Below, piece by piece: positions 2,964 to 48,100 of a stretch of DNA of 61,297 nt; the first letter of the stretch is position 1, and every line of letters starts with the position of its first letter. The translations under genes were made by a program, and so were the position numbers. The notes below the pieces were generated by a model. The model was not told where the DNA came from. It saw only the letters and a program-made list of their open reading frames with translations, and did no database searches. Origin of the DNA: a virus (Duplodnaviria > Caudoviricetes); the IMG/VR virus record IMGVR_UViG_3300033153_004916, positions 1 through 61,297 of that record. One strand, given 5' to 3'.

Positions 2964-3364
2964 TTAACATAATCTTCGCCGCGCTCAATGTCGGCCAAAT
3001 CTGCGCGCATTTTCGCAACGAGTTTCTCGCGCAATTCTTCGTATTCATCGCGATCCGAATTGCTAAATAATATTCGCAAAATGCGCATCGAAGAATCTTC
3101 ATCAAGGGCAATTGCGCACATTTCTACTTCTTTAAGTCTGCAAAACTGACAATCTTCTTTTTTATCATGATCTATAGTATAAGATATAAGACTTGATATT
3201 CTGCAATATCCACAAGATTGCCATAGTTCCCACTTCCAATGCATCCCGCGATCGCCTACCGTTAAACATTTTTCAAGCGCATCGTATGTTCCATAAGTTG
3301 TCCATTTTTCGATAGACTCTTCAATTTCTTCTATTATTTCTTCTTTGGTCGGCATTTCGTTCAT
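2939..3364 (-). CDS. Hypothetical Cys-containing protein
   Basis: CGYC..CQFC..C; coupled to the PolX stop. Confidence 0.65.
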   Translation of the reverse strand: MNEMPTKEEIIEEIEESIEKWTTYGTYDALEKCLTVGDRGMHWKWELWQSCGYCRISSLISYTIDHDKKEDCQFCRLKEVEMCAIALDEDSSMRILRILFSNSDRDEYEELREKLVAKMRADLADIERGEDYVNWEVEKCQ

Positions 3365-3819
3365 TAATAATCACGCTCCCGTGGTTCTTTCCATTTGAAA
3401 TTGATTTTCGCGAAAATATCTTTTTCGCTCGTGACTTCTATAAGTTCCCCACCGCGCCACAATCCATACTGATTGAGTTTCAAGCCCATACCCTTCGCCT
3501 TGCGCCGCATCCACACATTAAGCTTCGCGGACCCCGTAGCAAACAATATCGCTGGCCAGAATTCGCGATCAGCAATCGGCCAAATATCAATATGAACAAT
3601 GTGTTCTCCAACATGAATATCGCGATTAATGTGCTTATGAAATAGTTCCGACTCTTCTGGAAACACAACGACAATGTCCACATCGCCGATCAGCTCGCAC
3701 TCGCGCCGCAATGAACCACAGACCATATGTCTAAGATTATATGGTGTGATGTATTTTTCGATGAACTTGTCAGCGCCTTGCTGTGCGATTTCTCTGGATA
3801 TCTTTTCTCCTTTGCTCAT
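3364..3819 (-). CDS. polX: Minimal DNA polymerase X (palm and C-terminal subdomains only)
   Basis: CGSLRR..GDVDIVV, third Asp in HIDIW, FATGS..N..MR..AK..GLKLNQYGL, SEKDIF..EPRER. Confidence 0.9.
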   Translation of the reverse strand: MSKGEKISREIAQQGADKFIEKYITPYNLRHMVCGSLRRECELIGDVDIVVVFPEESELFHKHINRDIHVGEHIVHIDIWPIADREFWPAILFATGSAKLNVWMRRKAKGMGLKLNQYGLWRGGELIEVTSEKDIFAKINFKWKEPRERDY

Positions 3820-6850: not shown

Positions 6851-7273
6851 TCAAATTTTTCCAATAACGCGCATTTTGCGCCCAACTATAACATCGAAAA
6901 ATACATGGTTTTCTTTATCCCACATAAGATAGTCGCTCATTTTTTGGCGCCCAATAGCCGTTATTTGTGTCAATTCTACTTCGACAACAACATCCTCCGA
7001 AAATGTTCGTCTTGAAAATTCGCGCGCATCGTCTAAATTAAGAAATGCGTGAAACCCACATTTATATGATGGCGAATGATATCCATTTTCGTTTTCGAAC
7101 ATATCACGAGAAAGAATGTATTTTTTTGTATCAACATATGTCTCGCCGATTTTTATTATTATTCCAGCGCGCCATATTTCGAATCCTTTATCGCATTGAG
7201 ATAATACTTTATATGCAATTATCTTTTGCAGCGATCCGCGCACCCATTGTTTTTTAATATCATATAAGCACAT
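6851..7273 (-). CDS. Hypothetical viral protein
   Basis: MCL..AYKV..GFHAFLNLDDA; packed. Confidence 0.65.
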   Translation of the reverse strand: MCLYDIKKQWVRGSLQKIIAYKVLSQCDKGFEIWRAGIIIKIGETYVDTKKYILSRDMFENENGYHSPSYKCGFHAFLNLDDAREFSRRTFSEDVVVEVELTQITAIGRQKMSDYLMWDKENHVFFDVIVGRKMRVIGKI

Positions 7274-7444
7274 TTAATCCACATCCACAGTTATATCAAT
7301 TCTATGCACGATTCTTCGGAGAACGCCAGCGACCGCGCGATCAAAATCTATGCTTTCTCGCGACTGTCCTGGTTCCCATACTTCCAATGTGTCAGCCTCC
7401 ATTTCAAAGGCGGACATTATTGCTCTTTTATCTTCAATTTTCAT
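7274..7444 (-). CDS. 56-aa hypothetical protein (not in ORF track)
   Basis: MKIEDKRAIMSAFEMEAD..; AAGGAG SD; abuts next gene. Confidence 0.6.
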   Translation of the reverse strand: MKIEDKRAIMSAFEMEADTLEVWEPGQSRESIDFDRAVAGVLRRIVHRIDITVDVD

Positions 7445-7464
7445 AGTTATTTCTCCTTCGTTCT

Positions 7465-7515
7465 AATTATGGCGGCAGCGCGCTAGCTCATCACTCCGCT
7501 ACTACTATCGCCATT
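7465..7515 (-). other. Intergenic bulge-helix-bulge RNA motif 1
   Basis: Minus strand AAT-GGCG-ATA-GTAG...CTGC-CGCC-ATA-ATT. Confidence 0.6.
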
Positions 7516-7534
7516 CCGACTATCTGCGCTGGAT

Positions 7535-7774
7535 CTAGTCGCTACTTGATACATGTCCACGACCAAATACAAATCCTATCGCAAGCCCAATCAAAACCTT
7601 CGTCCAGAATCCATATGTGGGCCAGATTCCAAATATCATTCCTACGAGCCATAGCGCGATTGCGCCAGTTAACCAGCATGCAAATATTACGACCATAATA
7701 ATTGCTACCACAATTACAATTCCGGCCGCTCCAATGTCAGCGTCTCCTTTGTTATTCATTTTCATTTTCATCAC
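7535..7774 (-). CDS. Small membrane protein
   Basis: Two to three hydrophobic segments. Confidence 0.7.
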   Translation of the reverse strand: MMKMKMNNKGDADIGAAGIVIVVAIIMVVIFACWLTGAIALWLVGMIFGIWPTYGFWTKVLIGLAIGFVFGRGHVSSSD

Positions 7775-7985
7775 CGTCCTCGGCGTCCCAAGCCGTAATT
7801 TTATCCAGGGTCTCTTTCAGCAGCGTATTCAAGCGCTTGTTCTTCTTCACCAATGCCGCGTTCTTTTCCTGAAGGGTCATTATTGCGGTTTCTAAACCAT
7901 TAATGATATTCTGATCTTCATTAAAGGCGTCTTTCACAGCTTTAAACGCATTTTCTTGCGATTCTCGTATTTCTTTTTTCTCCAT
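7752..7985 (-). CDS. Coiled-coil protein
   Basis: Heptad pattern LQEKNAALVKKNKRLNTLL. Confidence 0.65.
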   Translation of the reverse strand: MEKKEIRESQENAFKAVKDAFNEDQNIINGLETAIMTLQEKNAALVKKNKRLNTLLKETLDKITAWDAEDGDENENE

Positions 7986-7986
7986 C

Positions 7987-8238
7987 TTATATTCCTTCGA
8001 ATGTTTCTTCTATAATCTGTTTATTATCGCGTATTACATATTTTCCACGAGAAGTTTTACATACAAATCCGCGCCGTAACAAAATATTCAAAGAATTTCT
8101 GATTTGATTATATGATATATCAATTATCTTTGACATTTCAAGGGCGGTTATTTTCTTGTTTTCAGAGATGTATGTAATTATTACGCCTAATGATGGTGAT
8201 AATCTTTCTTCGCGCGGAGAATATGGATATTTGGTCAT
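7987..8238 (-). CDS. Winged helix-turn-helix DNA-binding protein
   Basis: TALEMSKIIDISYNQIRNSLNILLRRGFV..RGKYVI. Confidence 0.75.
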   Translation of the reverse strand: MTKYPYSPREERLSPSLGVIITYISENKKITALEMSKIIDISYNQIRNSLNILLRRGFVCKTSRGKYVIRDNKQIIEETFEGI

Positions 8239-8316
8239 TTACCATCGCCTCACACACGTTGAGATTCCACGCTCTAAACGCAGCGAGGGATATTCGAAAT
8301 CTTCTCGTTCTATCAT
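8239..8316 (-). CDS. 25-aa microprotein
   Basis: MIEREDFEYPSLRLERGISTCVRRW; strong AGGAGG SD; TAA abuts next ATG. Confidence 0.45.
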   Translation of the reverse strand: MIEREDFEYPSLRLERGISTCVRRW

Positions 8317-8334
8317 TTTATGTCCTCCTTGTAT

Positions 8335-8509
8335 TATACGTTCCCGCTGATGGAATTGATGGATACGAAGAGTTCGACATCTGAATGGTGCGCATCAATT
8401 CAATGCGTCTTTTAAGAACCACACAGGGAAAGATGTTCGCATCTTCGTAGTATCCGAATAGCGCTCGATTTTATCCGTAGTATCTCGCTCTCATCAGTAT
8501 CGGGGTATA
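8335..8509 (-). ncRNA. Intergenic BHB motif 2 enclosing a 158-nt structured insert
   Basis: Minus strand TATAC-CCCG-ATA-CTGATG...CATCAG-CGGG-AAC-GTATA, all pairs Watson-Crick. Confidence 0.75.
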
Positions 8510-8518
8510 GATTCTTTT

Positions 8519-8929
8519 CTAGAACACCATCCCTTCACCAACTTTTGGTCCAAAAGCTAGCGCTTTCAGCTCTTTTCGCGTGAGTTTCTTCTCTTTCGCA
8601 GGCGCTTTATATGGCGCAGGCGGTGGACCGTCAACCCACATATCATCCATCTCGTCAAGATATAGCAAATGATATGGCGTTTGTGCATCAAATCTCATCG
8701 AGTGCGCATGATCTTCGCAGTAATATCCGCCAGTCTCTTTGACTCGCACGAGCGCCACGGTGCCGCATTTGCGCGTTGGCGCTTCCAATATTTCGCAGGT
8801 TGCGCACACGCGGATATTCTTTTTCGATTCGGCGCGCAGATTGCACGCCTCGCACTTTGCCCTCTTTTGCGCGTCAGCAATTACGCTAACCCGACATTTA
8901 TGCTTCGGTGTTCCCGTCATTTTCTTCAT
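8519..8929 (-). CDS. Cys-rich zinc-binding protein
   Basis: CEAC, CATC, C..YCEDH; AGGAG SD. Confidence 0.65.
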   Translation of the reverse strand: MKKMTGTPKHKCRVSVIADAQKRAKCEACNLRAESKKNIRVCATCEILEAPTRKCGTVALVRVKETGGYYCEDHAHSMRFDAQTPYHLLYLDEMDDMWVDGPPPAPYKAPAKEKKLTRKELKALAFGPKVGEGMVF

Positions 8930-9638
8930 TCTCCTTCTTTGCTATTTTTTCGCGGTAGCGTTCAATGTCCTTCAGAACCCGCTCAACTTCTTTCGCAAGT
9001 TCGTCAAGGTTGTTCGCATTCATAAAAGGAATACGCACCGCATCTTCTGATGTGCTCCAGATTTCTATTTCAGAATCTGTTACAAAAGTCATAAGCTCCG
9101 TGTTTTTCGGTAAGTCTTCGAAGCGCCCAACCCACTCTGAAATCATCTTTAAGTCTTTGGCGATAGAAAACGCGAGTTCATATGATCTTTTGGATAACTT
9201 GTCCCAGTCATCCGAGCGATTAACTGAAGGATAGCGTATAGAAACCTCGATTGGTTTGGCGTTTTCGCTATCGCTACCCATTAGTTTATCAATATAAAAT
9301 TCGTATGCGTTTGGCGATGAATTTGTTTCTATTCTCATGACACCTTTCTCAATGATAAAGTAAAATACGTTTTCGAATTTCTTTATTTCTGCGCGCTTCG
9401 CATTAACTAACGATATTTCGAACGTATTCTCATCTCTATCTTCATCTAGCACAACGCACCGTTCCTTTTCCATCGTGAAAAAGTCGCAATACTTTGGTCT
9501 ATCTTCGCCTTCGGCGCATAAAAGATCTACACGACCCGATTTCATTATGCGCATGCGCAAAACATCGCCCGTGATAATTTTATCAATAGGCGCAAGTGCG
9601 CTGGTGCTTTCGATCTTTTCTATTTCCATTCTTAGCAT
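8898..9638 (-). CDS. Hypothetical protein
   Basis: 246-aa ORF, GAGG SD. Confidence 0.75.
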   Translation of the reverse strand: MLRMEIEKIESTSALAPIDKIITGDVLRMRIMKSGRVDLLCAEGEDRPKYCDFFTMEKERCVVLDEDRDENTFEISLVNAKRAEIKKFENVFYFIIEKGVMRIETNSSPNAYEFYIDKLMGSDSENAKPIEVSIRYPSVNRSDDWDKLSKRSYELAFSIAKDLKMISEWVGRFEDLPKNTELMTFVTDSEIEIWSTSEDAVRIPFMNANNLDELAKEVERVLKDIERYREKIAKKENEENDGNTEA

Positions 9639-9656
9639 AGTATTTCCTCATAGTTT

Positions 9657-9741
9657 TAGCGTGGGCGGCATTATGCAAACGGAGCGCGATGAAGGAGTTA
9701 GATCGCACATATTAAACCGTTCCATAATGCTATCGCCGCTA
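9657..9741 (-). ncRNA. Intergenic BHB motif 3 enclosing a 70-nt hairpin insert
   Basis: Minus strand TAGC-GGCG-ATA-GCATTATG...CATAATGC-CGCC-CAC-GCTA. Confidence 0.75.
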
Positions 9742-9751
9742 TGTGTTTTTC

Positions 9752-10144
9752 TTAGGCTGCCATACATTGTTCGAGCGCGCAAATTATACCCAAATCGTAT
9801 CTTATATAAGTAGGCGCGTTTTCTATTGTATTCCCGATATTTTCCGCGAACGCTTCTCCATCTAACATAACTTGGAGATCATCTTTAAAGAGTATTGCGC
9901 GCCGAACAGCATCCGAAACGCAAATCTCTTCAACGGCAATGCGCTTAATAGTCTTATCTGTTTTCGCGTATTTGATTATTTCTAAACCAACTTGCTCCCA
10001 GCCTTTCTCTGTGAAATAAAAGCGCGCAGTTGCACAACGGCGCTCTGGAGCATCCATGCCATTCTCACACATTATACCGCCAAATGCACTTCCAATATGC
10101 ATACGCTTATTATTGCCTCTCCACATTTGTATGCGCCGAAACAT
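9752..10144 (-). CDS. Hypothetical protein
   Basis: Start MFRRIQ with GGAGG SD; ARFYFTEKGW. Confidence 0.65.
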   Translation of the reverse strand: MFRRIQMWRGNNKRMHIGSAFGGIMCENGMDAPERRCATARFYFTEKGWEQVGLEIIKYAKTDKTIKRIAVEEICVSDAVRRAILFKDDLQVMLDGEAFAENIGNTIENAPTYIRYDLGIICALEQCMAA

Positions 10145-10148
10145 ATTC

Positions 10149-10667
10149 TTATCCTCCGAATAGTTCAAACTGTCGGCGATAGCGCCCCGTTCCAAACTCG
10201 CGTATTCGCCAATTGCAGAAATCGGCGCCCTGACTAAATCGTATTCCAGGTCCGCTAACAAAATATGCAACCCTGAATTCAGATGGCGCACCATCGCAGT
10301 TGTGTTGTTCAGTAAAGATTGTCATATCCATATGATTTCCAATATCTATATGAAGCGTTCGGCAAAGATATTTGACATCGCGCTCGCCGTTGCGCTCGCT
10401 TCCGTGGAAGCGGATGTTCAACTCTTTGTCAAAGTTATGCCATTCTTGCGCCATTAAACCATTGTAGAATTTACGCAAAGCTTCGAGATTCAATTTCTTT
10501 ATAGCATCTATTATGACGCCAGATTTCCCTTTTCCGATTATCGCAAGAATTCGCGTATGAAATAGCTTTTCGCGATAGAATAACTCTAAGAAATTGCATC
10601 GGAAATCGTTAGGACAATTTATATCTTGCGCTTTTGGGCAAAGGTATGTCGTGAATTCGCTAGTCAT
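10149..10667 (-). CDS. Hypothetical protein
   Basis: Packed ORF. Confidence 0.6.
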   Translation of the reverse strand: MTSEFTTYLCPKAQDINCPNDFRCNFLELFYREKLFHTRILAIIGKGKSGVIIDAIKKLNLEALRKFYNGLMAQEWHNFDKELNIRFHGSERNGERDVKYLCRTLHIDIGNHMDMTIFTEQHNCDGAPSEFRVAYFVSGPGIRFSQGADFCNWRIREFGTGRYRRQFELFGG

Positions 10668-12106: not shown

Positions 12107-12631
12107 TTATTTCTCCTTCTTATTTTTGTCATTAGCGTGTGCATCGGCTTCTCGAAAGAGCCATGCGCTGTGTGAATGACCGCAAAGTTGTAATGCCTGC
12201 GCCGTTGTCGGAAACGGCACTGGGCGATAATCCCAGTTTTCTACACTGAAATTGATCGCGGGAATGTCCGCAAAAATCGGACGGTGAGATAAGATATAAG
12301 CTTCTTTGATAATAAGATAATCTCGATATACTTCTGCAAAGCCGTTTTCGCACCAATCATTGGTTGTCTGCCCGCGCCACTTATCGTGATTGCCCATAAT
12401 AAGTATTTTATATCCGTTAAGTTGTTCCAGAAGATCGCGCTTGCGTTCCCTGGTAGCGAGTGCGAAGTCGCCAAGATGATAAATCACATCGCCATTCTTG
12501 ACAACTTTGTTCCAATTTGCGACCATTATAGCGTCCATTTCTTCAACACTAGCAAAAGGACGCGCCTCGTACGCTTCCTCTAGCATGCGTGTATGCCCGA
12601 AATGGGTATCAGATATTACATATTTTGCCAT
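12107..12631 (-). CDS. Calcineurin-like metallophosphoesterase
   Basis: SDTHFGH, LGD, GNHD, SHRP, GHSH motifs. Confidence 0.9.
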   Translation of the reverse strand: MAKYVISDTHFGHTRMLEEAYEARPFASVEEMDAIMVANWNKVVKNGDVIYHLGDFALATRERKRDLLEQLNGYKILIMGNHDKWRGQTTNDWCENGFAEVYRDYLIIKEAYILSHRPIFADIPAINFSVENWDYRPVPFPTTAQALQLCGHSHSAWLFREADAHANDKNKKEK

Positions 12632-12657
12632 ATTTGTCGCTCCTTCTTAAAGGTAAC

Positions 12658-12730
12658 ACTGATTCTGGATTTCAACCAGAACCAGTCATTGAGAGTTGAG
12701 CGCTAGGCGGACAGCAACCGCCCAGCGCTC
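12658..12730 (-). other. Two intergenic RNA hairpins
   Basis: 13-bp stem at 12698-12730 and 11-bp stem with TTGAAAT loop at 12658-12686; G-U pairs work only on the minus strand. Confidence 0.55.
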
Positions 12731-12763
12731 TGAGGTGTTTCTATGATAGGATTTAGCGCTAGA

Positions 12764-19906: not shown

Positions 19907-19991
19907 TGGTGGGAGTGATCGGATTCGAACCGACGAATGCACAAGGCCCGGATCTTCAGTCCGGCGCTGTCCCAGGCTGAGCCACACTCCC
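19907..19991 (-). tRNA. tRNA-Phe(GAA) with a 13-nt variable region
   Basis: Loop CTGAAGA; variable region GCCTTGTGCATTC. Confidence 0.8.
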
Positions 19992-20480: not shown

Positions 20481-20612
20481 TGGTGGCGTCGGAGGGATTC
20501 GAACCCATCGAAGTGCCTACGCACACCGGATATCTCAGCGAACATTTGAGTATAGCCCCTAAATGCTGTACGCACTTAAGTCCGGCCCCTTTGTCCACTT
20601 GGGTACGACGCC
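20481..20612 (-). tRNA. tRNA-Leu(UAA) with a 43-nt BHB intron (20532-20574) at position 37/38
   Basis: CCGGA-CTTA-AGT-GCG...CGC-TGAG-ATA-TCCGG; long variable arm. Confidence 0.88.
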
Positions 20613-21461: not shown

Positions 21462-21538
21462 TGGCGCTCGGGCCGCGATTTGAACGCGAGTCGATGGAGT
21501 GACAATCCAGCATGATAACCTAGCTACACTACCCGAGC
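21462..21538 (-). tRNA. tRNA-Asp(GUC)
   Basis: Loop TTGTCAC, G73. Confidence 0.9.
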
Positions 21539-21927
21539 ATTTTTGCGATTGATTCCCATGATATATTTAGTGTATTCATGCACCAATGAACATGGCTATG
21601 ACATTTATGGCATAGAACGACATACTCATTTATATTGATTTCATTCAGCGAATCCCAACTTAGTAATGTTAATACTGGATGGGGTTCGCCGTTTTTATGG
21701 TGTATACACAATCTTTCTGGATATTCGCATATACGACATCTATTACCAATTTGATTTAATATATATGTTCGTTTTTGTTTGCGTCTGTTTCTTTCTCTTT
21801 CATTTCTTTTATTTTTTAATTCTTTATCGCTCATCTTTATTTTAGTTTTTGTTTCTTCTCCGCGAATTTTCCGTAAATACCATTCATGCTGATATTGTTT
21901 TTGTTTTTCTGCGTCTCTGTATCCCAT
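21529..21927 (-). CDS. HNH endonuclease
   Basis: Basic N-terminus, CRIC..LCIHHKN..VVLCHKCHSHVH. Confidence 0.82.
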   Translation of the reverse strand: MGYRDAEKQKQYQHEWYLRKIRGEETKTKIKMSDKELKNKRNERERNRRKQKRTYILNQIGNRCRICEYPERLCIHHKNGEPHPVLTLLSWDSLNEININEYVVLCHKCHSHVHWCMNTLNISWESIAKMLG

Positions 21928-21984: not shown

Positions 21985-22075
21985 TGGAATCGATGGGATT
22001 CGAACCCATAGCCTCCGCCTATCTTGGTGTTATACACATGCAAGGGCGGCGTTCTTCCGTTGGAACTACGATCCC
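21985..22075 (-). tRNA. tRNA-Ala(UGC) with an 18-nt BHB intron (22021-22038) at position 37/38
   Basis: G3:U70; CCGCC-CTTG-CAT-GTGT-ATA-ACAC-CAAG-ATA-GGCGG. Confidence 0.9.
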
Positions 22076-25038: not shown

Positions 25039-25333
25039 GAAGCCAGAAGAGCAAGCACCACAAGAAGATGAATTTATAGTCTCTGACTTAAGTGTTGTCC
25101 CGCTTCCTATAGATGTGTTTGCGGATCTTATGGACAAACTTCCAAATGCGGAAGATTTTGAACCAGTTATGTTCGAAATCCAGACACAAACCGCCCGTAT
25201 CAAAGTGGCGAAAAGTACAACTGACCGACAACTTAAACTTATTCTATCTACATTCGAAAAAATCTCCGGTGTAACTCCAGAGGACTCTTGGGAATTTCAG
25301 GATGAACAGGCTACAAAGAAGGGATACCAGTGA
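25028..25333 (+). CDS. Hypothetical acidic protein
   Basis: GGAGG SD; GTGA overlap with terminase. Confidence 0.65.
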   Translation: MATEKPEEQAPQEDEFIVSDLSVVPLPIDVFADLMDKLPNAEDFEPVMFEIQTQTARIKVAKSTTDRQLKLILSTFEKISGVTPEDSWEFQDEQATKKGYQ

Positions 25334-26931
25334 TTGATTTCAAACAGACCGACCAGTTAAGAAAACTTTACTTTACTGCGATTAAAGATGACCAACTTCT
25401 TGAAGATATTATCAAAGCGTTCTGTTCTGGGTTTCTAAAAGATCATCTTGGACGCAAATTGATTTTACGCCCAGCACAAATGGAAATGGTCAAGGCCGCT
25501 CTTAGTTCAAAACGATTAGTTGTATTAGCACCCAGAGGAAGTGGTAAGTCGTATTCAATAGCTGTCGCGATTGCTATGCGATTATTCTTTTTGAGAGAAA
25601 ATGAAGAGATAGCTTTGATTGCGCCTACAAATAAGCAGGCTAAACGTGTATTCCAATATGTTGTATCGTTTCTGCAAGGCCACCCTGAACTCAAACGCCT
25701 CATTAAAACAATTCGTCATGCGAATCCGGCCCAGATTAGCCTATATGGTGGGTCGTTTATTTATTGTGTGCCCGTTTCGAAGAATGACCACGGAGAGAAC
25801 GTGCGTGGAATACATCCAACGTTCTGTGTGGTAGATGAGAGTGGTTTTATACCCGATGACATTTTTGTTCCGAACGTGGAACCGATAGTTGTTGCGAAGA
25901 GCGCGCCGTTTATTAACATAACTACACCAGGCCCGCGTGATAATCACGTTTTTAGATATTTATACGATGAGAAGATGGCTAAGCGGTGGCGACGTATCAA
26001 ATATACATGGCGCGACATGCTTGACCAGGGCGATGCGTACGAGCCAACGTACCCTCTTGACCCAGATACGGGCCTAAGTGAGATCGAATCGAAACTCGAA
26101 GAGTGGGGCGAGGATTCGCCGGACTTTCGCCGAGAATATATGTGTGAGTATGATGCAGACCAGTCGAATCTTTTCGGTGATCGCGTTTTCGAGAAGGCAT
26201 TTTATACATTGGAACGTTTCCGCGAAGGTGCGGAGGGTGAATTCAATGTGATGACTATCGATTATGGTAGAAAACACAACTCGACAGCGTGGGCAACATG
26301 GGGTTTAACCACAGATGATGAAGGACATACGAGTGCGAACCTAATTGATCTTCAAGAGATGATTCCGCGGGGTAAAGGATACTCACCAAATGCTATTCGA
26401 ACCGATATTATTAATTATGTGACTGTAAATAAGATCAATGCGATTGTAATTGATGCTACATCGTTCGGAGATTCGTTTAGCGCAGATCTTGAAGACTATA
26501 TTTATGAAAATCACGAGGGCATACACTTTTATAAGTTTATATTCAGTATTGGAAAGAGCGAATGGTTCTATAAATACAAATATTTACTTAGTGATAAGCG
26601 GTTGCGCATACCTCGGCCTAGTAAAATGGCCGATTTAGAAGAAAGTAACATGATGGCGCGTGCAATACACCAGCATAAGATACTTACCGCGACCATTTCA
26701 GAGAGAAGTGGTAAAATATTGATCTCTAAACCACGAACAGAGCATGATGATTTAGCTGATGCTATGATGCTTATCACATATTTCATAGAAAAGAATCCAA
26801 AATTCTCCGTGGACATAGAATTGACCGCTGTGCATAATATGTCACGGTCGCAACCATGGAGAACTGAGATTAGTACACCACAGCGGCTCGCTGAATTTGA
26901 CAATTTTAAAGATACGGGGATTTATTTATGA
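25330..26931 (+). CDS. terL: Terminase large subunit
   Basis: LRPAQ, Walker A APRGSGKS, Walker B CVVDE, TTP, FRREY, nuclease IDYG..DAT..HDDLADA. Confidence 0.93.
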   Translation: MIDFKQTDQLRKLYFTAIKDDQLLEDIIKAFCSGFLKDHLGRKLILRPAQMEMVKAALSSKRLVVLAPRGSGKSYSIAVAIAMRLFFLRENEEIALIAPTNKQAKRVFQYVVSFLQGHPELKRLIKTIRHANPAQISLYGGSFIYCVPVSKNDHGENVRGIHPTFCVVDESGFIPDDIFVPNVEPIVVAKSAPFINITTPGPRDNHVFRYLYDEKMAKRWRRIKYTWRDMLDQGDAYEPTYPLDPDTGLSEIESKLEEWGEDSPDFRREYMCEYDADQSNLFGDRVFEKAFYTLERFREGAEGEFNVMTIDYGRKHNSTAWATWGLTTDDEGHTSANLIDLQEMIPRGKGYSPNAIRTDIINYVTVNKINAIVIDATSFGDSFSADLEDYIYENHEGIHFYKFIFSIGKSEWFYKYKYLLSDKRLRIPRPSKMADLEESNMMARAIHQHKILTATISERSGKILISKPRTEHDDLADAMMLITYFIEKNPKFSVDIELTAVHNMSRSQPWRTEISTPQRLAEFDNFKDTGIYL

Positions 26932-27221
26932 AAATGCGTGGTGTTTTTGATTTGGTGATGCGATTGCTCGTTGACCATCCGAAATTGATAGGAGAAATAA
27001 TCTCTGTGGATTATATGAAAGGCATTATTCTTGATGAATACCATAAAGAGGTCGATAAACGCCAGATAGGTCGCGCACTTAAGACAATTGGCTTTTATCA
27101 AGAAAACATAAACGTTGTAGAGTCGCCAATTATCCGTAGAAAGTCTGTTTACCATCTCAATCATGGCATCTTTGATGCCGCAAGACTTAAATATGTCGTC
27201 AAGGACAAAAAGGAGGACTGA
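26928..27221 (+). CDS. Hypothetical protein, possibly DNA-binding
   Basis: ATGA overlap; KRQIGRALKTIGF. Confidence 0.6.
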   Translation: MKMRGVFDLVMRLLVDHPKLIGEIISVDYMKGIILDEYHKEVDKRQIGRALKTIGFYQENINVVESPIIRRKSVYHLNHGIFDAARLKYVVKDKKED

Positions 27222-27225
27222 TTTC

Positions 27226-28374
27226 ATGGCTATGCGCGGATTTAGGGCATCGAGATTTGCAGAAAAGGATGATATGCCACACGGCACGACACTGACTAGT
27301 CGTTTAAGCAATGCTGTACTGGCAATGACTAACTATGAGATACCACAGAATCTTAAATTCGAGGCTGCAAGACGATTGTATCAGCGTGATCCTGTTGTGA
27401 GATCATTTATCGAAACATATTGTAGTTATGTTTTAAAAGACGACTTCTATATCGATGGCGGTGACGAATCTAGTCGTAAGATAATCGAAGATTATTTTGC
27501 TAATGTCAATTGGCAGCAAATAATGATGAAGTGGTTACGCGAAAGTAAGGTATTTGGGATAGGATACCTTGAAATTACCAATACAAATCTTTTTAATAGG
27601 CCCGCGTGCACTATGCATGCAAAGGTTGATCCAAAGACCGGCGAAGTCACAGAGTGGATACAGAAGCCAAATACAAATGATAACAAAACGTGGACTAAAT
27701 TTGATGTTGGACAAATTGCGACACTGCCAAATGGTGGATTCGCTGATACGTATTATGGGATTAGCGATGTGGCTACAGTTGATTACGTTATTAAATTCTT
27801 GAAAGATCCGGCCGAGAGAGACTTGATAGTCACTCTCAATAAATATGCCGGTGATAGATATAAAATCAAAGTAGGAAGCGAGTTTAGGCCGGTATCTAAA
27901 GAACGATATCAGCGCGTTGTAGATTATTTCTCTGAACTCAAAACAGGAGAGGATGTAATATTCCGTGGAGACATAGAAGTTAATATGCTCACACCACAAT
28001 ATGCAGCTATTGACTTTAGAACATATTTAGATTATATATTAAATATACTATCTATAGGTCTTGGTGTTCCTCTTGTATTTTGGGTAGGCCAGGGCGCAAC
28101 AGAAGCTACTGCCAAAATCCAATTAGAAGCGTTCGAAGCTAATGTTAAAGCAACACGCTCACTAATGGAGTGGGCAATCAATGAACAAGTCATCCCCAAA
28201 ATCGTCCCTGGGACTAAATACCCCAAATTTAAATTTAAACCAATTAATTTGAACGAAGAATTCTTAGCTGCTCAAATTGAACAAATTAAACACAGTGTGA
28301 CACCAGCTGAAAATGCTGATAGACAAATCAAAAAGATTGAGAAGCTAGACGAAGTAGGAAATTTGGATGAGTGA
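27226..28374 (+). CDS. Portal protein
   Basis: Follows terL; DPVVRS, VFGIGYLE, YYGISDV, GLGVP, INEQVIPK. Confidence 0.85.
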   Translation: MAMRGFRASRFAEKDDMPHGTTLTSRLSNAVLAMTNYEIPQNLKFEAARRLYQRDPVVRSFIETYCSYVLKDDFYIDGGDESSRKIIEDYFANVNWQQIMMKWLRESKVFGIGYLEITNTNLFNRPACTMHAKVDPKTGEVTEWIQKPNTNDNKTWTKFDVGQIATLPNGGFADTYYGISDVATVDYVIKFLKDPAERDLIVTLNKYAGDRYKIKVGSEFRPVSKERYQRVVDYFSELKTGEDVIFRGDIEVNMLTPQYAAIDFRTYLDYILNILSIGLGVPLVFWVGQGATEATAKIQLEAFEANVKATRSLMEWAINEQVIPKIVPGTKYPKFKFKPINLNEEFLAAQIEQIKHSVTPAENADRQIKKIEKLDEVGNLDE

Positions 28375-42708: not shown

Positions 42709-45184
42709 CATTTCTGGTCCACTAACAGCGATAAGCAATAGCGTTGCTAATAAGCAAAAAATGATGCTTTCTCGTGTAAATGCCAATACAAAAGCTTATA
42801 CAAAGGCGCAAGTCAAAAATTTTAATACTTATATTTCTGAGATGAAGGCTTCTCGTAAACGTATGACAAGTGATATGCTCAACCAATATACAACAGAGCA
42901 TAAAGGTACACTACAGCGTTTAAGAGGAGCGAAAATTCTAAATGCTAGCACAGCCGTTTCTGATGGATTGATGCGCGGATTTGTTTCTACTATGAAATTA
43001 TCTGCGGGCGCAGCAATCGGGATGGGAACAGCATTTCTAGGTCTCGCGAAGATGATTGGTCCTGTATCAGAAAAGCTTGCTGGAATGGCGGCGATTACAC
43101 AGAGATCGGTTTCCTATATATATGGAACACTCGGAGTTACACTGAGATCGATGATGAAACAGTTTCCGAAGAGCGCTGGAGAAATGTCGGAAGCGTTGCG
43201 TGTTTTATCTCAGGCGGGTTTGGACGTTAATGAAGTTAATACTGCTGCGATTCCGATTATGAATTTGTCCGTCGCTACGATGAGCGATTTCGCATCCACG
43301 TCGGCATTGGTTGTTCGTGTGATTAAAGCGATGCGTATGGAAATGGATGGCGTCGAGCACGTTACAAACGTACTTACATTTGCAGTTAACAATTCGGTTT
43401 CTACAATTCAGACTCTAGCCGATTCTCTTAAGTTCGCTATGCCTGTTGCTAACCAGTTGGGTATGACCATTGAGGATCTTACTGCGGGTATGATGATATT
43501 GCAGAATGCTGGTCTAGAAGCCGGTATCGCTGGACGTTCTTTACAGAGAGCGTTACAGAAATTGGTTAACCCATCTTCAAAAGCGACTGCAATTATGTCG
43601 AAATATGGAATGGAGATTCTCGATGCTAATGGTGAAATTAAAGATATGGTTTCATTGGTTCAAGAATTGGAAGGTATATATGATTCGTCGAGTGATGCGC
43701 TAGAAGCTATGAATGAAAATATGGATGAGTCGATTACTAAATTCCAGACGGCTGCGGATTTCGCAGAATTGTTTGGTATTCGTGGTGGTCGAGCTATGGC
43801 TAACTTAATTGGAAAGTCTGGTGAGATGAAAGAATTTAGAACCGCCATGATTGATGATGTTGCTAAGTCCTCTCAGCAGGCTACAACTGCTATGGAAAAT
43901 ATCAATTCGCAGATGAGTATTCTTAAGAATTCGTTTATGTCGACCATTCTTACTACACAAGATTTTAATAATGCGTTCTTAAGAATGGCGGACAGACTTG
44001 CGCCAAAGATGGAAAAATTGGGCGAAACCTTTTCAGCACTAGCTGTGAAGTTCTTTGATCGATTTGCCGAGAGTGATTTTACTGACCGATTGATTGGTGT
44101 ATTTGAAAAACTCATGGGACTTGTGGATAAGTTCTTGCCGCGAATCGTTGAACTTGGTGAATATTTCGCATCGCTCGCAGAAACATTCATGGGACTCGCA
44201 TCAGCTGGCGATGGATTTGGAGCCAAATTGGCGATTGCTAATAAAATGACTGGTGCATCATCTATTGCGACTCAGCGTCTTAATAATAACATGATGATTA
44301 ACGGACAAATGATTCAGGCAAATGTTGGATATTATGGACATATGCATGGAATACAAAATCAAGTAATTCAAGATTATGAAAAAGATATTAAAACTACTGA
44401 TATGGCAATTGCAACAAATAAAGGAATGATTAATTCAAAAAAGGATACAATACAATTAAATAAAGATGCGGGCGTTCAAAATGCTGGACATATGCGCAGT
44501 CTTGCAAGATTGACAAGAAAAGAAGCGGATTTAAATAATACACGAAAAGATCAGATACGATTATCTAATAAAGCGTTTATTGGAAGAGAAGAAGCAAAAA
44601 AGGGACTCGAAGATTATACAGGCGCGCAAATGCGAATGAATCGTAGTATGATTGGCGCCTCCGCCGTTATGGGATCCGTACAAGCCGGTATGCAAACACT
44701 TATAGGAACGACAGCTATGTATGCTGCTGGAAATAAAAAGATCGCTTTGGGTATGGCCGCAATTCAGGGAGTAATGATGGGACTGGCGCTCACTCAGCAA
44801 TTATTGGCTGCCAGTTGGATATCGGCCGATGCTGCAAAAACATTTGGTATTGGTGCGGTAATAGCTATTCCAGCTTTACTTGCTGGGTTAACATATGCCT
44901 TTGGGGAAAATCAGCGCAATGCTACAGCAGAAATGGAAAACGCGCGTGATAGTGTAAGTCGTGTAGCGATACCCGCTCTTGCAGAAGGTGGAATAGTTAC
45001 GAAGCCAACTATAGCACTTATTGGAGAAGCTGGCCCAGAAATGGTCACGCCTCTAAGTGATGCTGGTGCGCCAATGAGTATCCATATCGATATGTCTAAT
45101 TCGATTATCACAGAAACATCAATTCAAGAACTGGAGAATCGCCTTGAAAGAACAATAGCCGAAAAATGGGGTGCTAGATTATGA
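42623..45184 (+). CDS. Tape measure protein (TP901-type core)
   Basis: LADSLKFAMPVANQLGMTIEDL..AGLEAGIAGRSL; C-terminal LAEGGIVTKPTIALIGEAGPE. Confidence 0.92.
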   Translation: MAMMGSMARGAGGTTAGLRTALAVTAVDNISGPLTAISNSVANKQKMMLSRVNANTKAYTKAQVKNFNTYISEMKASRKRMTSDMLNQYTTEHKGTLQRLRGAKILNASTAVSDGLMRGFVSTMKLSAGAAIGMGTAFLGLAKMIGPVSEKLAGMAAITQRSVSYIYGTLGVTLRSMMKQFPKSAGEMSEALRVLSQAGLDVNEVNTAAIPIMNLSVATMSDFASTSALVVRVIKAMRMEMDGVEHVTNVLTFAVNNSVSTIQTLADSLKFAMPVANQLGMTIEDLTAGMMILQNAGLEAGIAGRSLQRALQKLVNPSSKATAIMSKYGMEILDANGEIKDMVSLVQELEGIYDSSSDALEAMNENMDESITKFQTAADFAELFGIRGGRAMANLIGKSGEMKEFRTAMIDDVAKSSQQATTAMENINSQMSILKNSFMSTILTTQDFNNAFLRMADRLAPKMEKLGETFSALAVKFFDRFAESDFTDRLIGVFEKLMGLVDKFLPRIVELGEYFASLAETFMGLASAGDGFGAKLAIANKMTGASSIATQRLNNNMMINGQMIQANVGYYGHMHGIQNQVIQDYEKDIKTTDMAIATNKGMINSKKDTIQLNKDAGVQNAGHMRSLARLTRKEADLNNTRKDQIRLSNKAFIGREEAKKGLEDYTGAQMRMNRSMIGASAVMGSVQAGMQTLIGTTAMYAAGNKKIALGMAAIQGVMMGLALTQQLLAASWISADAAKTFGIGAVIAIPALLAGLTYAFGENQRNATAEMENARDSVSRVAIPALAEGGIVTKPTIALIGEAGPEMVTPLSDAGAPMSIHIDMSNSIITETSIQELENRLERTIAEKWGARL

Positions 45185-48100
45185 CGACAACAGCAATGCC
45201 ACGTATTTATAATTCACAAGAATATATAAGATATCTAATAGAAACAGATAACATGAACGCTCATCATATTACTGTTCAAGAAGAGACGGCGCCGAGCGTT
45301 TTTCGTGATATAGACGATGATGTTTTGATGCTTCTGAATGACGACACAGATGGATATTATTGTAACTTTATTGATACAAATTCGCGTTCGTCGAATCTCA
45401 AGTTCATAGTTAAAAATATTAGCGACGTGGAACTCGAATCAGTGATTACAGCGGATTCATATGGAGAATCGTTTTTATGGGTATCTCGTATGAATGCGCC
45501 ATATATAGTTAATGCATATGGTGGCGCTGGTACGCACACTTTTGCTATTTCTATTCCAGGCGATATAGAAACGTCTACGTCCACTGGGACATTCACGGGC
45601 AAACTAAATTCAGGAGAATTCAAATATAGAAGAGTCGGCGATACTATTTGGAGTAATATTGCATTATCTCTTGTGTCTAAAGATTTAGAAACCGGATTAG
45701 ATGGGCTTATATATACGACATTCGAGTCTAATGATGTCCCAATCGTACCTGGGACATATGAATTTTATGTTGATTTGACATTTGAACATCTAATATTTGG
45801 CGATATTCATATTATTACATCAGAGACCGGGAAAACAATTGTTAGTCATATGGGATACTCGTCTTCGTATATAACTGCTGATTATACATATGATAGTTCA
45901 CGTAGTGGTGCCGAAGTCCGATTTCAACTATCCGCATATCCCGAAGGTGGTGCCGATGGCACTGGAATATGTCTAGCAATCGATTTGGCAGAATATGATT
46001 TACATTATGATGGCGGCGCGATTACTCTCGAGGATTTTGTTTCTGTGTATTGTTCGGCGAGTGCTGTCACTAAACGTTTCGAAGTTGACAAAGCAGATAT
46101 AGTGTCGGCATTATCACTTGGTGCAATAAGTGGATATGATTATAAGCCAATTTTAATTTTATTTGGATTTCAATTTCCCGATGGGCATACTGACTTCTTT
46201 CACAGTCTGAATCCGCTTTTTTGGGACGGTTCGGACTTTATTGGATTAGATGATACTGGCACGGTTATTATACCTGGCGATGAAATATTATATGGATATC
46301 TTGATGGGACTTCTATTTATAAAGATTCCGCATCGAATATAGATTTTTCCTCTGAACCTCTTGGAGCATGGGGAAGTGCTGTCGATTTTCGTGCCCAAGG
46401 ACAAGATTCGTCTAAATACGTTTTTAATGATCCAGTCGATGGTTCAGTTAGTCGTTATATTGTAGACACGAAATTTTATAATTGTACATCGCCATTACCA
46501 GCATGGATGAATACAACTGGCGGAGGTGCCATTTTTACAAGTGCTAAATATTATTCCCCGCCGACTTCTCTAAGAACAATAAATGTCACACTTGATTATA
46601 ATATCGAATTGCCTGTTATAGAAGGTGCTATAGAATTTTATTTGCAAACAAGTATTTATCCAAATGCCGCTATTCATATTGTTCGCGATTCGGATTCTGC
46701 TGTTTTGGGTGGAATAGGAATTGTAGCACCGGCTCTTACTTGGATACATATATATTCTTCGATATATGTTAAAAATGGGAATAGATATTTAATTGTAGAA
46801 GCATATGATTTAAGTGAGAATTTTCTTTTTGGTAATAGAAGTCTTTTATCCGATTCTTCTTCGTCTGCGAAATTCAGACTTGTTAATTATCAGAGTGGGG
46901 CATCATATTGGGATAATATCACATTTTATGAATTAAAAACCGAATCGATTTTTGCCCCAATATCTATTGAAACATATCAGGATGCTGCTAATATGGGAAA
47001 AATTCGTAGTAGCCAATCAAACGGCGATCCTATAGTTGTAGAATATTATAATGGTAGTATATGGAAACCATTTGCTATTTATGTTCATTCTGATATCGAA
47101 TGGGGCGAACCAATTGCACAAAGTGGTGGGAGCGATTGGGGTCATAAACTTCGAACACAGTTTTATTCATTTGATAATCAGAATATTGCTAAAATCTCAC
47201 CATTGAGTATTTTCGACATGAAAAATTGGCTTTCCATTGCCGATCCGACTGGGTTATCTAATTATATCGATTGGACAACGCGGACGTTTTCTATGTCTAT
47301 TGAAAGTAGTACCGATTTGAATCAGCAATTTTTAATTCCATATTCTTGGCTTAAATATGATGATTTAATTTATGATTTAAAACGCGATGGTTCATTTGTT
47401 GAACAAACCGACAATCTTCCAATAACTATACAGAATCAGCACGCATTTTATAATTTAAATGTTCCGAGCGTATACACAACAAAAATCTTCAAAGCAGATT
47501 TGCCCGATATATGCATTCCATTTATTCCCATACCAGAAGATGATATATATCGAATTGGGGATGCAGCGATTCCCACAGCAGCATATGAATCAGATGTGGC
47601 CGCGATGAATACTACAAACAACGCTTTAGCGTTGCACTCAAAATATTTCTTTGAATTGTTATTGGGTACAAATGGATTAATCGACAATCAACAGAGTATT
47701 GCTCAACCATATGTATCACCTATAGGTATCGATTCATCTGGGAATATTACAGTTGGTACTTCAAAATTAGCCGACGCTAATGTATCTCCTGTGATATCTT
47801 TAATGAATGCAGAAGATAATTTTGTTAATGTGACATATTATGGTATATCAGCTATCGAATTAGATTGCGATGGCTTAGATCAACCAAATGTGATGAATGA
47901 TTTTATAGTTGGTGGAAACTTTATTGGTTATAGTCGAATCGGATCGGAGAACATAATACAAGCTATAACATCGATAAGCACGGCTCCTTTCCCATTTGGA
48001 GAGATATCTATTACTCCGACACTAATTGATACCTATGGACACGATGATGCCGTAGGAAGCGCCGTAGACATCATTAATAGGAACATAGTAGATCCTACAC

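Follow-up and report, generated by a model that had tools for sequence, protein, structure and literature searches.

Two canonical bulge-helix-bulge motifs and one weaker candidate in intercistronic spacers of a tailed virus, probable substrates of an archaeal splicing endonuclease

The window analyzed here is the whole of a tailed-virus record in IMG/VR (IMGVR_UViG_3300033153_004916; Duplodnaviria, Caudoviricetes), 61,297 bases long and estimated to be ~49% complete. Genes occupy the minus strand from position 1 to ~24,400 and the plus strand beyond. In the early minus-strand region, between positions 7465 and 9741, three spacers each hold an element that resembles the bulge-helix-bulge (BHB) motif recognized by the archaeal splicing endonuclease, EndA. 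We number these elements 1 to 3 by coordinate. All genes neighboring them are on the minus strand. In the direction of transcription, the first is a gene for a 180-amino-acid (aa) protein (9752..10294, from the open reading frame (ORF) list), for which no Pfam or PHROG family was matched; its stop codon ends 20 nucleotides (nt) before the predicted 5' cut of element 3. Between elements 3 and 2 are two overlapping genes (8519..9638) that encode a 246-aa protein and a 136-aa Cys-rich protein. The former is without an assigned family and has a single homologue (67% identity) in protein searches. Element 2 is followed by a 25-codon mini-ORF (8239..8316), read directly from the sequence, which has a strong Shine-Dalgarno sequence (AAGGAGGA) and a stop codon immediately adjoining the ATG of the gene that follows; it is not represented in the protein collection. 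Three genes (7535..8238) then encode a winged-helix regulator-like protein of 83 aa and proteins of 77 and 79 aa, with weak matches to TrmB and MarR-like families. Element 1 separates these from a 56-aa gene (7274..7444, from the ORF list; ATG at 7444).

A canonical BHB, as described in PMC6379350, has two 3-nt bulges with a 4-nt helix between them. Relaxed forms (hBH, HBh' and BHL), in which one bulge is missing or disrupted, are reported in that account to be cut efficiently only by EndAs of the (alpha-beta)2 and epsilon2 types. Element 3 (9741->9657, minus strand) reads uagc GGCG AUA gcauuaug..cauaaugc CGCC CAC gcua. It has a 4-base-pair (bp) outer helix (UAGC/GCUA), a central helix of GGCG/CGCC and an 8-bp inner helix, 16 pairs that are all Watson-Crick, and its bulges are AUA (9733-9731) and CAC (9663-9661). 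The predicted excised piece is 70 nt long (9731->9662). Element 2 (8509->8335, minus strand) reads uauac CCCG AUA cugaug..caucag CGGG AAC guaua, with a 5-bp outer helix (UAUAC/GUAUA), a central helix of CCCG/CGGG and a 6-bp inner helix. Its 15 pairs are likewise all Watson-Crick, its bulges are AUA (8500-8498) and AAC (8342-8340), and the predicted excised piece is 158 nt long (8498->8341). Element 1, which we treat as a candidate (7515->7465, minus strand), reads aau GGCG AUA guagu..gcugc CGCC AUA auu; its central helix (GGCG/CGCC) is Watson-Crick, and the outer helix of 3 bp and inner helix of 5 bp form in an alternative conformer only. The piece predicted to be excised from it is 38 nt long (7506->7469).

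A first-pass annotation of the window, made by a model from the letters alone, gave coordinates and letters for all three elements that are entirely correct, and the AUA 5' bulge and all-G/C 4-bp central helix that it described are present at every site. Its assignment of BHB geometry to all three stands for elements 2 and 3, in which neither 3-nt bulge is paired in the minimum-energy or the centroid fold and which RNALfold also detects; it does not stand for element 1, the best fold of which is without a 3' bulge. The BHB conformer of element 1 has a predicted energy of -14.6 kcal/mol versus -19.0 kcal/mol for the best fold, making it 4.4 kcal/mol less stable, and the element's descriptor score, 11, does not rise above background. 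By these models, element 1 is at best a weak, relaxed or alternative-conformer BHB candidate. At all three sites the handedness fits the coding strand; the antisense RNA yields the mirror form.

Ensemble calculations give the BHB core of element 3 a probability of 0.67-0.71 whatever the flanking sequence. The corresponding value for element 2 falls from 0.9 in isolation to 0.16-0.2 when 60-120 nt of flanking coding sequence are included. For comparison, the two BHB-bounded introns in tRNAs of the same virus reach ~0.5 (tRNA-Ala) and 0.14, down to 0.0002 with flanks (tRNA-Leu). By this measure, elements 2 and 3 are predicted to form the BHB at least as readily as the viral tRNA introns do. The 70-nt piece of element 3 has a folding-energy z of -3.8.

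The tRNA introns bear directly on the enzymes available to this virus. ARAGORN identified 22 tRNAs, and the Rfam covariance model added two with inserts in the anticodon loop, for a total of 24; both intron-bearing tRNAs were missed by ARAGORN and were found by the covariance model only. The first, tRNA-Ala(UGC) (21985..22075, minus strand; 54.2 bits), has an 18-nt intron at 37/38 within a BHB at 22049-22015 (ccgcc CUUG CAU gugu..acac CAAG AUA ggcgg) that RNALfold also detects. The second, tRNA-Leu(UAA) (20484..20612, minus strand; 35.5 bits), has a 43-nt intron and the BHB ccgga CUUA AGU ... UGAG AUA uccgg. When the rule of cutting after the second bulge nucleotide is applied to these introns, a normal anticodon loop results (7 nt in the case of tRNA-Ala). 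Both inserts are read as canonical 37/38 introns bounded by a BHB. A virus with two such tRNAs would therefore rely on a BHB endonuclease and a ligase of its host, and we infer that it infects an archaeon with a splicing endonuclease and ligase. Another tRNA in this region, tRNA-Phe(GAA) (19907-19991, minus strand), is 85 nt long by ARAGORN, with ~9-10 extra nt in the variable region; these could represent a variable arm of unusual length or a small insert of non-canonical type.

A loose BHB descriptor matched 652 times on the plus strand of the window and 564 times on the minus strand. The base-pair count failed to separate the sites from this noise, and exact geometry was therefore sought in predicted folds. 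RNALfold, run with a span of 260 on both strands, returned ~13,000 local structures. Among these, three minus-strand structures match the geometry: elements 2 and 3 and the intron of tRNA-Ala. No match was found on the plus strand, and no mirror-handed form anywhere in the window. Three block-wise dinucleotide-shuffled minus strands gave no instance of the geometry, even at helix thresholds of 1-2 bp. The comparison with shuffled intergenic sequence that the first-pass annotation had called for came out in its favor: none of 4250 folds (17 minus-strand gaps with 250 dinucleotide shuffles each) has the geometry, which is present in real gaps 2 and 3.

A faster pipeline, in which a descriptor score of at least 12 is followed by folding in isolation, identified in the window the same three minus-strand sites and one plus-strand match inside an 853-aa gene. 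That match (44958-45185) has two G-U pairs in the outer helix, was not recovered by RNALfold and is probably due to chance. Forty block-shuffled minus strands gave one match in all. In ~0.94 Mb of other viral DNA (~1.9 Mb of strand), five matches were found, or ~2.7 per Mb of strand. Two of these were in 80 IMG/VR loci of distant relatives by the large terminase (TerL; 666 kb in total), one was in the archaeal tailed virus HGTV-1 (144 kb) and was antisense to annotated genes, and two were in one of two complete distant relatives (G001, 81 kb), the other having none (G002, 67 kb). The distant TerL relatives, which together gave four matches in ~0.8 Mb, were used as natural controls and to see whether the trait extends across the lineage; they are probably bacteriophages. 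At this rate ~0.16 matches would be expected per 61-kb strand and well under 0.01 per 2.3 kb of gaps, where two are observed; elements 2 and 3 are independent exact matches within 1.2 kb. The fast pipeline has limited sensitivity, missing the tRNA-Leu intron of the window and both annotated tRNA introns of HGTV-1, and its failure to find true tRNA introns means that absence elsewhere tells us little. A search by descriptor for BHBs formed over longer distances, up to 4 kb, returned noise only. The BHB geometry at two sites is far beyond chance; the third site is marginal.

The elements are placed regularly with respect to genes, and they occupy the spacers almost completely. From the preceding stop codon to the predicted 5' cut there are 28 nt at element 1 and 20 nt at both element 2 (stop at 8519) and element 3. 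From the predicted 3' cut to the next start codon there are 24 nt at element 1 (ATG at 7444), 24 nt at element 2 (the mini-ORF ATG at 8316) and 23 nt at element 3 (9638), and at each element a Shine-Dalgarno sequence starts ~12 nt past the predicted 3' cut. Removal of the excised pieces would leave spacers of 52, 44 and 43 nt at elements 1, 2 and 3, respectively. The outer helix of element 1 starts 19 nt past the stop codon; those of elements 2 and 3 are closer to it, at 9-10 nt. No relaxed BHB above background was found 18-30 nt before other gene starts, the three sites excepted. The three gaps are devoid, on the transcribed strand, of TATA-like hexamers and of T runs five or more long, which lends slight support to their being spacers inside one transcription unit; TATA-like hexamers are present in 6 of 15 other gaps examined. 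Fusion of ORFs by splicing was considered and rejected, each 5' cut lying 20-28 nt past a stop codon.

The sequences at the junctions provide a further connection to the tRNA introns. Across the five BHBs of the virus, 6 of the 10 bulges read AUA: the 5' bulges of all three intergenic elements, the 3' bulges of both tRNA introns and the 3' bulge of element 1. The tRNA 3' bulges among them are free of constraint from the anticodon. The preference is not universal: in HGTV-1, the tRNA-Ala intron has UUA as its 3' bulge. This shared bulge preference links the intergenic elements to the tRNA substrates of EndA in the same virus. The sequence CGAUA is common to the 5' junctions of all three elements, and elements 1 and 3 have a core, GGCGAUAG...UGCCGCC, in common. 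An 8-mer, GGCGATAG, occurs four times in the window versus 1.76 expected; 7 of 100 shuffles reach four, so it is not significantly enriched.

The interiors of the elements (38, 70 and 158 nt) are unrelated in sequence and in length. Several small features were seen within them. A 9-nt direct repeat, GAUACUACG, occurs at 8446-8454 and 8476-8484 (minus strand) inside the 158-nt element. The 11-nt terminal loop of the 70-nt element (9690-9705, minus strand) contains CUCCUUC, complementary to Shine-Dalgarno sequences of the GAAGGAG type, such as that preceding the gene at 7444; the match may be a coincidence. The loop of candidate 1 (7486-7493, minus strand) contains GUGAUGA, which we take to resemble a C box or K-loop motif; neither a D box nor an Rfam match was found. 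A search of 7400-9800 against Rfam up to E = 5 gave no sense-strand match and one match of 17.6 bits, at chance level, on the other strand.

Potentially accounting for these observations, we propose that host EndA cuts the elements in the viral spacers. This is the best explanation, and we consider it likely. It is also the most economical reading, because the virus, with its intron-bearing tRNAs, would depend on a BHB-cutting enzyme. The early minus-strand genes would be transcribed in an archaeal host as long multi-gene mRNAs, in which at least two spacers are predicted to fold into a canonical BHB, the sole structure that EndA requires. EndA would cut after nucleotide 2 of each bulge, at elements 2 and 3 20 nt past the upstream stop codon, and 23-24 nt ahead of the next start, the Shine-Dalgarno sequence of which begins ~12 nt past the cut. 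The excised 70- and 158-nt pieces, with 5'-OH and 2',3'-cyclic phosphate ends, would be circularized by the ligase RtcB. The halves of the mRNA may be rejoined by RtcB, which would make each element an intron in an untranslated spacer, or they may stay apart, which would divide the operon into segments and give downstream cistrons a uniform leader of 23-24 nt. The latter is plausible because the outer helices are only 4-5 bp long and may not hold the halves together. Element 1 may be cut partly, or by a broad-specificity enzyme only. At elements 2 and 3 a terminating ribosome would melt the motif, the outer helix being so close to the stop codon, and cutting could perhaps be sensitive to translation of the upstream gene. 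Splicing, separation of cistrons and production of circular RNAs are all compatible with the sequence.

The first-pass annotation had likewise proposed EndA processing of the viral mRNA, and the canonical geometry at two of three sites and the presence of BHB-intron tRNAs bear it out in part; the third site, which is not canonical, does not. Several other results weigh against EndA processing. In its minimum-energy fold, element 1 pairs AUGGCG with CGCCAU to form a 6-bp helix with the 5' AUA bulge and no 3' bulge, and the ensemble probability of its BHB core is ~0.001. The folding energy of the 158-nt element is ordinary (z = -1.5). No gene for EndA (PF01974) or RtcB (PF01139) was identified in the window, which represents ~49% of the genome. 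Translational unmasking, considered as a consequence of processing, was rejected, the predicted energy of opening the ribosome-binding sites showing no consistent change among the unspliced, spliced and 3'-cut forms. Finally, one of the complete distant relatives (G001) has a BHB-shaped hairpin, cac AGUG AUA, a 14-bp inner helix and CACU AAA gug, on the sense strand directly past a stop codon (63697-63782 of that genome, L088 3697-3782, minus strand). This 81-kb record is probably from a bacteriophage, because it contains a manA RNA motif (L088 12159-12341), known from marine cyanobacteria and from phages that infect them. A BHB shape in a probable bacteriophage indicates that the shape can arise without EndA.

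One alternative is that the elements exist to release functional non-coding circular RNAs of 70, 158 (and 38) nt, with any effect on the mRNA being secondary; such products would be likened to the C/D-box RNAs of tRNA introns or to circular pre-rRNA. The interiors are long and structured. The 70-nt piece has a z of -3.8, its loop carries the CUCCUUC complementary to GAAGGAG-type Shine-Dalgarno sequences, and the 158-nt piece contains GAUACUACG twice. In Haloferax, excised BHB introns are described as circular RNAs (PMC7714728). However, the Rfam search of the region gave no sense-strand match up to E = 5, the three interiors have no sequence in common, and the folding energy of the 158-nt piece is unremarkable. 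We regard this alternative as unlikely.

The elements could instead be selfish mini-introns, BHB-bounded sequences that spread into neutral spacers and are tolerated there, since the host enzyme takes them out, without a function for the virus. In some archaeal rRNA and tRNA genes, short BHB introns that lack ORFs are considered mobile. The core shared by elements 1 and 3 (GGCGAUAG...UGCCGCC) and the CGAUA of all three are in line with this, and all three are in non-coding spacers, where insertion would be harmless. Against this, the interiors of 38, 70 and 158 nt are unrelated, and the excess of GGCGATAG (4 versus 1.76 expected, reached in 7 of 100 shuffles) is not compelling. In addition, half of each BHB consists of flanking "exon" sequence that an insertion would not bring, and the fixed distance of 23-24 nt to the start codon suggests selection on position. 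This origin seems quite unlikely.

Very unlikely, in our view, is that the elements are ordinary intercistronic hairpins (stabilizers, binding sites of a dimeric protein of the virus or the host, or devices for translation coupling) with a coincidental match to the BHB: the BHB-shaped hairpin of the probable bacteriophage (G001), the best fold of element 1 and the strong plain hairpins in other gaps of the same operon (e.g., 12763-12632) are in keeping with it, but two exact matches in 1.2 kb compare with none in 4250 shuffled gaps and ~2.7 per Mb of strand elsewhere, the handedness is correct, and the AUA bulges are common to the virus's own tRNA introns. Archaeal EndA, moreover, is known to cut minimal BHB substrates in any context. 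The plain hairpins just mentioned, in the spacer at 12632-12763 (minus strand), have a 13-bp G/C-rich stem and a 10-bp stem, are not BHB-shaped and stand upstream of the Shine-Dalgarno sequence of a metallophosphoesterase gene.

If EndA does cut these elements, several known systems are relevant. According to PMC7714728 (Schwarz et al. 2020), two mRNA substrates of archaeal EndA are known, the coding-region intron of cbf5 and the HVO_1309 5' untranslated region (UTR). In that study, the 5' UTR of Haloferax volcanii HVO_1309 is reported to contain a 46-nt BHB intron that was found as a circular RNA and whose BHB sites proved to be substrates of recombinant EndA in vitro. As described, this intron resembles the viral elements in being bounded by a canonical BHB and in lying in an untranslated part of the mRNA, upstream of a coding region. 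It differs in that it belongs to a single cellular gene and is its only such site, located in a 5' UTR past a mapped transcription start, whereas the virus has two or three predicted intercistronic sites, 23-24 nt from the next start codon. The intron of cbf5 pre-mRNA in Crenarchaeota is likewise a BHB-type mRNA intron removed by the tRNA-splicing machinery (Watanabe 2002, cited in PMC7714728; Yokobori 2009, PMC2738675). It is described as splitting the coding sequence, so that splicing restores the frame, whereas the viral elements follow a stop codon and join no frames. The closest precedent for operon processing is the archaeal 16S/23S pre-rRNA, a polycistronic precursor that EndA cuts at BHBs, with circularization of the product (PMC7714728; see also PMC10515664 and PMC12918454). 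In the account given there, the pre-rRNA BHBs arise by long-range pairing around a whole gene and the excised part is functional, whereas the viral BHBs are local hairpins in spacers.

Archaeal tailed viruses, including HGTV-1, are known to have intron-bearing tRNAs, RtcB and tRNA-processing genes, as reported by Liu et al. 2021 (PMC8651126). Like the virus described here, HGTV-1, a halovirus, is an archaeal tailed virus with a large tRNA set and an intron in tRNA-Ala(UGC). Unlike it, HGTV-1 has annotated BHB introns in tRNAs only. In its 143.9 kb, our scan detected no BHB on the sense strand between genes, a weak negative given that the scan missed the two annotated tRNA introns. TerL alone is detectably common to HGTV-1 and the window (22.6% identity).

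Outside archaea, the elements invite comparison with the RNase III sites of the phage T7 early genes, intercistronic hairpins that recruit a host endonuclease of stable-RNA maturation. Both are structured hairpins between cistrons of a viral early operon, and the fixed distance of 23-24 nt from predicted cut to start codon fits the comparison, which is one of function only. The two systems differ in enzyme, in fold and in the chemistry of the ends, and the T7 products are neither religated nor circularized. We know of no general mRNA-processing pathway in archaea that resembles that of RNase III. Full-text literature searches, which do not cover all literature, turned up no BHB reported from a viral mRNA or from an intercistronic spacer. 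Both motif and enzyme are well known; what is unfamiliar is their setting (viral, intercistronic, in multiple copies and at a fixed distance from start codons).

A fuller proposal is that EndA and RtcB constitute an mRNA-processing system of the virus, in which cuts would generate uniform 23-24 nt leaders with 5'-OH ends and stable circular RNAs, one with a loop resembling an anti-Shine-Dalgarno sequence. Ribosomes that terminate 9-10 nt ahead of the outer helix may compete with the cutting. This would be the archaeal counterpart of T7 RNase III processing, and EndA would have its first substrate in a viral mRNA. We offer it tentatively and consider it doubtful as a whole. If the sites are cut, the virus would recruit an enzyme of tRNA and rRNA maturation to shape its own messages, archaea would gain a defined pathway of operon processing, and virus-derived circular RNAs would be added.

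The first of the plus-strand genes encodes TerL (25330-26931, plus strand), and a Mu-type portal follows (27163-28374, plus strand). The lineage is new: between this TerL and its counterparts in cultured viruses, identity does not exceed 22-25%. The protein databases contain one close relative, whose TerL (P0001) is 92% identical and is encoded on a 106-kb contig; the homologue of the 246-aa protein (P0010, 67%) is from the same contig. No match to 7200-10300 was found by blastn in the phage collection. Scans of IMG/VR with the 246-aa protein and with TerL, and of JGI metagenomes with TerL, identified no relative, and a scan of GTDB genomes with the TerL alignment returned one irrelevant 2.7-kb contig only. 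None of eight small, spurious ORFs that span the gaps is present in the protein collection.

The early region also encodes a Thg1-family tRNA-His guanylyltransferase (680-1435), a polymerase-beta-type nucleotidyltransferase (3364-3819) and the metallophosphoesterase (12107-12631), all on the minus strand, which may together form a toolkit for tRNA or RNA repair or maturation. The nearest clusters of the Thg1 protein are viral. A dCMP deaminase is likewise encoded in the window. After the intron-bearing tRNA-Ala(UGC), a 132-aa Cys/His-rich ORF (21529-21927, minus strand) has no clear Pfam match, and in HGTV-1 the intron-bearing tRNA-Ala(UGC) adjoins an annotated HNH endonuclease (L082 49226-49759). 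We note the surroundings of the two tRNA genes as a similar arrangement only and draw from them no conclusion of homology.

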